This document shows positions 11,788 to 12,584 of a stretch of 41,181 nt of DNA, one piece after another. Position 1 is the first letter of the stretch. Each line of letters begins with the position of its first letter. Location: positions 1 through 41,181 of the IMG/VR virus record IMGVR_UViG_3300020202_000046; one strand, 5' to 3'. Below the pieces are notes generated by a model. That model did not search any database and had not been told where the DNA came from. It saw nothing but the letters and a program-made list of their open reading frames with translations. Position numbers and translations under genes: made by a program. This DNA is from a virus.

Positions 11788-11964
11788 ATGAAATTTATAT
11801 TACAAATGATAGGCGCTGGTTTTTTATCTGCTTGCTTTGGGCTTGGATTGTGCCAAATACTTCTACGTTTCGTAGAATTTGATACTGCCGTTGGGCTTTC
11901 TATTGTGGCCACTATCGGTTTATGGGCCTCAATAATGGTTTTAGTGGAAGGTGGTGTGATATGA
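11788..11964 (+). CDS. small two-TM membrane peptide (58 aa, below the track cut-off), int-attP cargo
   Basis: Manual translation: MKFILQMIGAGFLSACFGLGLCQILLRFVEFDTAVGLSIVATIGLWASIMVLVEGGVI. Its stop overlaps the next start (ATGA at 11961-11964). Confidence 0.55.
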   Translation: MKFILQMIGAGFLSACFGLGLCQILLRFVEFDTAVGLSIVATIGLWASIMVLVEGGVI

Positions 11965-12584
11965 ATACAGGGCAAAAGGCAAAAGAGATAGTAGAGAAAT
12001 TCGAAATTTTCTCTCATGGTGTTAGGGTTTGCATGTTGATTGACCGCGGGCAGATGAATTCAAACAAGGGTTCGCGCCGCTGGGTTTCTAAACTGATATC
12101 AGCAGACAAAGAGCAGCTTGAGGCAAATATCATTAAGTTACTATCTCAACAGGAATATTTGGCCAATCCAGATATTAGGCTTTATATGTGTGTTAATGCT
12201 AGAAATATGGATAAAGCAATAAAGCATTTCCAGCATGCTCAGCTAAATCTTGATCAAGAGTACAAATATAAATTTTATGCCAGGATTCAGGATTCTTTCT
12301 GTAGCTCTCTAATGAAGCCGGAAAACAGAGCAGAAAGCTTATTTTTAATTGACTATGATCACCCTGAATTTACCTGGAAACTTTCATCGTTTGGCATTAA
12401 AGAGGTCTTTAGGTACAAAACCCCGGGCGGCTGGCACATAATAACTGAACCTTTTAACCCAAAATTGTTTGGGGTTGATAGTGATACGGTAAAAAAAGAT
12501 GCGCTTTTACTTCTTAATTTTTCAGAAAGTACTGGTGCAAAATCTGTCCAGCCCAGTGCGGAAAATGGTGAACTAAATGCTTAA
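11961..12584 (+). CDS. hypothetical 207-aa protein with AEP/Prim-Pol-like motif spacing, int-attP cargo
   Basis: Start is at ATG 11961, behind a GGAAGGTGG SD. LFLIDYDHPE (hhhDhD), then about 30 aa on YKTPGGWHIITEP (sGGxHhh), then about 25 aa on VKKDALLLL. These resemble AEP motifs I-III. The assignment rests on pattern recognition only. Confidence 0.35.
   Translation: MNTGQKAKEIVEKFEIFSHGVRVCMLIDRGQMNSNKGSRRWVSKLISADKEQLEANIIKLLSQQEYLANPDIRLYMCVNARNMDKAIKHFQHAQLNLDQEYKYKFYARIQDSFCSSLMKPENRAESLFLIDYDHPEFTWKLSSFGIKEVFRYKTPGGWHIITEPFNPKLFGVDSDTVKKDALLLLNFSESTGAKSVQPSAENGELNA

Follow-up and report, generated by a model that had tools for sequence, protein, structure and literature searches.

Archaeo-eukaryotic primases (AEPs) are defined by an N-terminal α/β unit, a C-terminal unit resembling the RNA recognition motif (RRM), and three motifs, hhhDhD/E, sxH and hD/E (PMC4538821, PMC10345425). 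Those Prim-Pols that are proficient as primases require ancillary domains (PMC10345425). Here we analyse a viral DNA of 41,181 nucleotides (nt; IMG/VR record IMGVR_UViG_3300020202_000046, positions 1 to 41,181; hereafter the window), in which an open reading frame (ORF) of 207 amino acids (aa) at 11961..12584 on the + strand carries motifs of this kind. A preliminary description, made from the letters of the sequence, had read the ORF as Prim-Pol-like and had joined it with a 58-aa membrane peptide encoded just upstream into a candidate two-gene defence cargo. The homologues, a structural model and the match to PHROG 14949 identify the 207-aa protein as a predicted two-lobed enzyme of a large unannotated family, whose members are encoded by phages and mobile elements. 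The reading that we favour, with a probability of roughly 40%, is that of an enzyme made early, which would depend on metal ions, transfer nucleotidyl or phosphoryl groups and serve the end processing or repair of nucleic acids, or counter-defence.

The three strings on which the Prim-Pol proposal drew, LFLIDYDHPE, YKTPGGWHIITEP and VKKDALLLL, are all present in the 207-aa ORF, and they are not chance features, since they contain residues that are near-invariant in 150 diverse homologues. R73, D131, D133 and G157 are found in 150/150, as is Thr or Ser at position 154; R29, R81 and H159 are each present in 149, Y75 in 146 and N79 in 135. D180 is kept in 132 of the 150 (88%) and is Asn in 17. 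In the C-terminal lobe these residues fall in three segments on the + strand: FLIDYD (12342..12359), an hhhDhD motif with D131 and D133 at the C-terminal end of strand 128–132; YKTPGGWH (12414..12437), an s-x-H-type motif with T154, G157 and H159 on the β-hairpin 148–153/158–162; and KKD (12492..12500), where D180, the third carboxylate, stands just before the last strand, 182–186. The N-terminal lobe contributes a basic/polar cluster (12045..12203, + strand) made up of R29 (12045–12047) and R73-x-Y75-xxx-N79-x-R81 (12177–12203), which are presumed to be phosphate-binding residues.

The two lobes are linked by covariation. In a direct-coupling analysis of 312 sequences, N79–D180 was the third-strongest pair, and among 334 aligned hits the combination N79/D180 occurred 308 times versus 13 for D79/N180 or E79/N180, a charge swap between the two positions. 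Thus, one carboxylate is needed at this spot, and either lobe can supply it. This is strong evidence that both lobes build a single composite active site.

An AlphaFold2 model built from a 45-sequence alignment was confident (predicted local distance difference test, pLDDT, 91.8; predicted TM-score, pTM, 0.84) and has two lobes, the first α/β and the second βαββαβ, that is, ferredoxin/RRM-like. According to DSSP, the N-lobe runs α1 (3–13), β (21–28), β (41–47), α (50–67), β (72–77), and three helices (83–117) separate it from the strand bearing the DxD. The C-lobe runs β (128–132, DxD), α, a hairpin of β (148–153) and β (158–162, with the His), α, and β (182–186, after D180). Coevolving pairs lie at 128–162 and 129–161 (antiparallel), within the hairpin 148–153/158–162, and at 130–177 and 78–183, which argues for a ferredoxin/RRM-like sheet order extended by the N-lobe. 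Foldseek against BFVD gave significant matches to uncharacterised phage proteins only (E 3e-6 to 1.4e-4, TM-score 0.54–0.59), the best being I7JVR5 of Campylobacter phage CP21 (E 3e-6, TM-score 0.59). TiaS appeared four times among the weak Foldseek matches (E 0.1–0.7, TM-score ∼0.2), and a literature search found nothing linking TiaS to AEPs.

In the proposed mechanism, the N-lobe would supply three invariant or near-invariant Arg residues together with Y75 and N79, and the C-lobe would supply D131-x-D133, T154, G157-x-H159 and D180. The carboxylates would coordinate one divalent metal ion or two, with the Arg/His/Thr cluster gripping the phosphates of a nucleotide or of a nucleic-acid end, in an active site that may be laid out like that of a Prim-Pol and that would catalyse nucleotidyl or phosphoryl transfer. 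Several other enzyme classes were considered. KKDG was rejected as the KxDG-like motif of an ATP-dependent RNA or DNA ligase, since neither Lys is invariant: K178 is present in 96/150 homologues (64%) and K179 in 108/150 (72%), and the motif lies ∼10 residues from the C-terminus. Judged by the order of motifs and secondary structure, HAD, Toprim, Pol-beta nucleotidyltransferase, GT-A, PD-(D/E)xK and ART enzymes were set aside as unlikely, their companion motifs or strand order being absent.

The family itself is large. A word-indexed search returned 45 relatives of the 207-aa protein at E ≤ 1e-3, and an exhaustive profile search at the same threshold gave no fewer than 1,423 clusters (50% identity), with E-values below 1e-30 for 174. 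Nearly all members are stand-alone proteins of 175–220 aa, and a few have Cys-rich, zinc-ribbon-like N- or C-terminal extensions, fusions that point to nucleic-acid substrates. Members are frequent in metagenomic phages, and homologues named 'hypothetical protein' are encoded on Haladaptatus megaplasmids and Lactobacillus plasmids. The sole profile match of the 207-aa protein was PHROG 14949 (unknown function; E 1.6e-6). Pfam searches with 150 members and with family consensus sequences gave no recurrent family and no named member; tblastn of the protein and the family consensus against 50,697 GenBank phage records gave no match, and neither did megablast and blastn of the region. Literature searches on the PHROG 14949 identifier, and on a part played by stand-alone Prim-Pols in RNA repair, gave nothing of relevance. 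A subfamily scan of 185,579 representative prokaryotic genomes, made with restrictive patterns, gave one match, on a contig of a metagenome-assembled genome (MAG). The MAG is labelled Nitrosotalea sp., the 32-kb contig is JAHEYD010000013.1 and the encoded protein is 46% identical to the 207-aa protein; this archaeal contig may be a mis-binned phage contig. A further member, at 6061–6597 of Lactobacillus taiwanensis plasmid NZ_CP059277 (hidden Markov model (HMM) E 6e-23), keeps the DxD; its residues at the positions of G157 and H159 are N and A.

The motifs raise the question of whether the protein is a true, extremely divergent AEP of the Prim-Pol type, priming or extending DNA for phage replication or gap-filling repair. 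Motif I (hhhDhD/E on a β-strand) corresponds to F128-L-I-D131-Y-D133 at the end of strand 128–132, and motif II (s-x-H) to G157-W-H159. Motif III (hD/E) is only loosely matched: Lys stands before D180 where the motif has a hydrophobic residue, and Asn takes the place of D180 in members with Asp or Glu at position 79. The preliminary description had emphasised the order and spacing of these motifs, and in this it was right, as all three are conserved in AEP order and spacing. Profile comparison also gave some signal. With hhalign, both NrS-1 alone and a 60-sequence NrS-1 family profile produced one local alignment with motifs I and II in register, in which the family profile pairs D131/D133 with D78/D80, T154 with S109, G157 with G112 and H159 with H114. 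The E-value against the family profile was 0.0049, although the hhalign probability was 7%. A block-shuffle reached this score in 1/150 trials and the reversed profile scored 7.7. The T7 gp1.7 protein, a 196-aa kinase without a P-loop, served as a negative control and was unrelated by hhalign (score 15, E 0.2).

Further points favour a Prim-Pol origin. A control Prim-Pol of 167 aa, modelled at pLDDT 91.6, has a secondary-structure order that parallels the 207-aa family up to motif III, stand-alone Prim-Pol domains of ∼165 aa exist, and PF09250 was touched by 2/150 family members at E 0.054 (the NrS-1 catalytic domain itself was not matched by PF09250). The phage of the window encodes an O-like initiator, Sak4 and SSB, and no primase or helicase was recognised in it. 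As an observation on that group of enzymes, many metagenomic relatives of the NrS-1 Prim-Pol (P0289–P0349) are ∼165-aa proteins consisting of the catalytic core alone, with PF09250 detected in some, and these cores are without the helix-bundle or helicase domains that are thought to be needed for priming.

The structural comparison goes the other way. Despite the confident model, Foldseek of the 207-aa protein gave no significant AEP in PDB or BFVD, the only AEP in BFVD being a 'primase small subunit' at E 0.4, whereas the BFVD matches of the control Prim-Pol model at E < 1e-3 included 41 AEPs, some as little as 12% identical. No bridge was found through BFVD, since the match lists of the two models share nothing. 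In addition, family members scored no higher than shuffled or reversed sequences with a Prim-Pol HMM, Lys precedes D180, the strands expected after motif III are absent, three helices are inserted before motif I, and the ancillary domains needed by primase-proficient Prim-Pols (PMC10345425) count against a priming role. Thus, the check by profiles that had been proposed for the Prim-Pol assignment was weakly positive with hhalign, with Pfam empty and the Prim-Pol HMM without signal, and the check by structure did not confirm a primase fold. The protein is therefore taken to function, presumably, in the manner of a two-metal nucleotidyltransferase of Prim-Pol type, whereas we regard descent from the AEPs, with a role in priming or extension, as possible but on the whole unlikely.

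For the transferase reading, the likeliest role, an accessory one in nucleic-acid end processing or repair or in counter-defence, is suggested by the genes beside which relatives are found: PNKP, RNA ligases, Ro60, DNA ligase, NinG and anti-defence genes. We compared 27 loci of at least 7 kb for Pfam neighbours and 45 non-redundant loci for neighbour clusters. Outside the window, the family gene is found within a series of small early genes or beside terminase. PNKP, or the HAD phosphatase of PNKP, was present in four loci and directly adjacent to the family gene in two of these (L026 and L031). Ro60/TROVE was found in two (L062 and L017), DNA ligase with a pyrimidine-dimer glycosylase in one (L024), PolB in L015/16 and NinG in five, and the Pfam-confirmed neighbours also included a C5 methylase, a metallophosphatase and Band_7. 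One metagenomic phage locus (L054, 4503–9856) is a dense RNA-repair island, in which the family gene is followed by a 55-aa Cys-rich ORF, an Rnl1-like RNA ligase, a Band_7/SPFH gene, another RNA-ligase-like ORF, whose N-terminal sequence is Rnl5-like, and a full-length PNKP.

A different kind of counter-defence has to be weighed against these contexts, since four of the 27 loci, namely the window, L001, L026 and L031, have a Tad2-like or Acb2/Tad1-like gene a few kb or less from the family gene. In the window this is a 92-aa ORF at 9299–9577 (+ strand) with a match to PF11195 (Tad2-like domain, Thoeris anti-defence; E 4.4e-5, just below the gathering score). The 207-aa protein might then degrade or modify an immune signalling nucleotide or an NAD-derived molecule through its DxD/H/D metal site, and so be functionally like Acb1 or Apyc1. 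Its place in early accessory regions would agree with this, and an Arg-rich pocket would suit phosphorylated small molecules. However, Pfam and PHROG searches linked the protein to none of the known anti-defence families, RNA-repair genes show at least as strong an association with the family gene, and the zinc-ribbon fusions favour nucleic acids as substrates. Such a signal-directed activity is improbable.

The ORF pair that had prompted the defence proposal is itself real. The 58-aa ORF occupies 11788..11964 (+ strand), its translation contains two segments that are hydrophobic on the Kyte-Doolittle scale (≥ 1.6 over 19 residues), and its stop codon TGA at 11962–11964 overlaps the ATG at 11961 of the 207-aa ORF (ATGA), so that coordinates, translations and hydrophobicity all agree with the description given earlier. 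The sequence GAAGGTGG stands at Shine-Dalgarno distance before both starts, 11788 and 11961, as it does for most genes here, and is 10 nt 5′ of the 58-aa ORF. A program-made ORF list gives a 220-aa version of the downstream ORF with a start at 11922. The start at 11961 is preferred, because GAAGGTGG precedes it, because the alternative ATG at 11922 has no Shine-Dalgarno sequence, and because the homologue starts cluster near 11961.

The position of the pair between int and attP was also confirmed. A tyrosine integrase is encoded at 10755..11783 (+ strand; PF00589, E 2.8e-32), leaving a gap of 4 nt between its end and the 58-aa ORF, and a tmRNA-derived attP region follows at 12599..12734 (− strand; Rfam RF00023, 27 bits, E 9e-9), in which the ssrA 3′ end, GGTCGGGAGTTCGATCCTCCTCGGCTCCACCA, is read on the minus strand. 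ARAGORN found no intact tRNA or tmRNA. A 41-kb Logan contig from another assembly, 100% identical, breaks at 12628 within the tmRNA-like stretch, which fits an att core at that place. The same stretch (12599–12734, − strand) contains matches to the tmRNA 5′ end (GGGGUCAAAAUGGCUUU) as well as to the 3′ end, and 37 nt stand where tmRNA has its central 259 nt; its Rfam score of 27 bits compares with a gathering score of 47, and its RNA fold has z = −2.45. Such a stretch may be no more than an ordinary attP derived from ssrA plus chance, or else a mini tmRNA-like element borne by the phage. On the other side of the pair, an HTH_17 excisionase-like ORF (10537–10893, + strand) overlaps the integrase ORF by 139 nt in another frame, an unusually long xis/int overlap that a late stop codon or a different start might also explain.

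That the membrane peptide and the enzyme act as a pair at the edge of the prophage, expressed from it and causing superinfection exclusion or abortive infection, would be consistent with this position and with the translational coupling of the two ORFs. The comparison of loci speaks against it. A tblastn search of 27 related loci gave no homologue of the 58-aa peptide, which also belongs to no neighbour cluster shared among the 45 non-redundant loci; none of the other 44 carries a homologue. The peptide has no Pfam, PHROG, NCBIfam or PADLOC match. Close same-strand neighbours with transmembrane segments make up 6 of 83 flanking genes (7%) versus a background of 11%, so there is no enrichment, and integrase adjacency is seen only in the present phage among the loci compared. 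Other members lie in early regions of apparently diverse phages, near terminase, PolB and repair genes. PADLOC assigned neither protein to a defence family (0 families for both), and no promoter-like site upstream of the pair stood above chance in a scan for the sigma-70 consensus, which may not be that of the host. A single match in the prokaryotic genomes is unexpected for a common prophage-borne defence gene, although the scan patterns were restrictive. As judged from the loci compared, the 58-aa ORF is a neighbour specific to this lineage, with no conserved partnership with the 207-aa gene, and the two-gene defence cargo proposed at first is very improbable. As a caution, location in the int–attP interval together with an adjacent membrane peptide was no sign of a defence module in this case.

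The strand layout bears instead on the timing of expression under the transferase reading. A CI-like repressor (2278–3003, + strand) comes first on the + strand, and the same strand carries a methyltransferase, YopX, Sak4, SSB, the Tad2-like gene, xis, int and both ORFs; Cro/CII-like genes, the O-like initiator, RusA and the structural and lysis genes are on the opposite strand. From this layout, the two ORFs are taken to be the last genes of the early-left (cI-side) operon. The 207-aa gene would thus probably be co-transcribed with int at the far end of that operon, given the 4-nt gap after int and the lack of a promoter-like site in the sigma-70 scan, and the protein would then be made on infection or induction and not in the lysogen.

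Several observations weigh against a metal-dependent transferase with the role proposed. No homologue of known biochemistry or structure came to light: in PDB, Foldseek gave nothing significant (best E 0.076) and no AEP in the top 50, the 207-aa protein has no Pfam, NCBIfam or PADLOC match, and neither the protein nor two profiles retrieved anything relevant from PDB sequences. RNA-repair genes are present in 5 of the 27 loci of at least 7 kb, as a raw count, and are absent from the present window, and no neighbour gene is conserved across most loci. The promoter scan covered sigma-70-type sites only, and the host may use others. To judge by their substitutions, some members may be non-catalytic, such as the Lactobacillus plasmid homologue without G157 and H159.

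In a wider form of the argument, the family would represent a new fold class, one of metal-dependent transferases of nucleotidyl or phosphoryl groups, or would derive from the AEPs at a distance that current structure search does not bridge. Phages and archaeal and bacterial plasmids would use it early in infection as counter-defence, to mend or alter the ends of RNA or DNA; for example, nucleotides removed by anticodon nucleases might be restored before PNKP and ligase seal the break. This extension is speculative and rather doubtful. What makes the family worth attention is that at least 1,400 clusters of a compact protein without a name or domain model share an invariant, catalytic-looking site and a confident fold without a PDB match. 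If the protein is a nucleic-acid repair or counter-defence enzyme, it would be a new component of phage end-healing and sealing pathways, and it might also be a small nucleotidyltransferase of practical use.

Among known systems, the AEP/Prim-Pol domain (phage NrS-1 N-terminal domain, PDB 6A9W; PF09250) is alike in having ∼170–200 aa, in the order of an α/β unit and then a βαββαβ unit, which in the 207-aa family is predicted, and in the succession of hhhDhD, [ST]-x-x-G-x-H and, later, an acidic residue, at similar spacing. It differs in that the 207-aa family has a 45-residue three-helix insertion between the N-lobe strand and the DxD strand, is without strands after motif III, has a Lys before the motif III Asp, and contains RxYxxxNxR and R29 without a demonstrated NrS-1-like counterpart. 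The BFVD proteins I7JVR5, A0A2I7RF84, A0A8S5MEK5 and A0A8S5T1J4 are similar in length (220–246 aa); they are only 11–21% identical to the 207-aa protein, were missed by sequence searches and, being uncharacterised, add no function. Genes typical of phage RNA end-healing and sealing modules of the T4 Pnk + Rnl1 type (PNKP, HAD_PNKP, Rnl1-like and Rnl5-like ligases) and Ro60 co-occur with the family gene in the five loci noted above, with the stand-alone PNKP phosphatase directly adjacent to it in two, whereas the 207-aa protein belongs to none of those enzyme families and has no P-loop.
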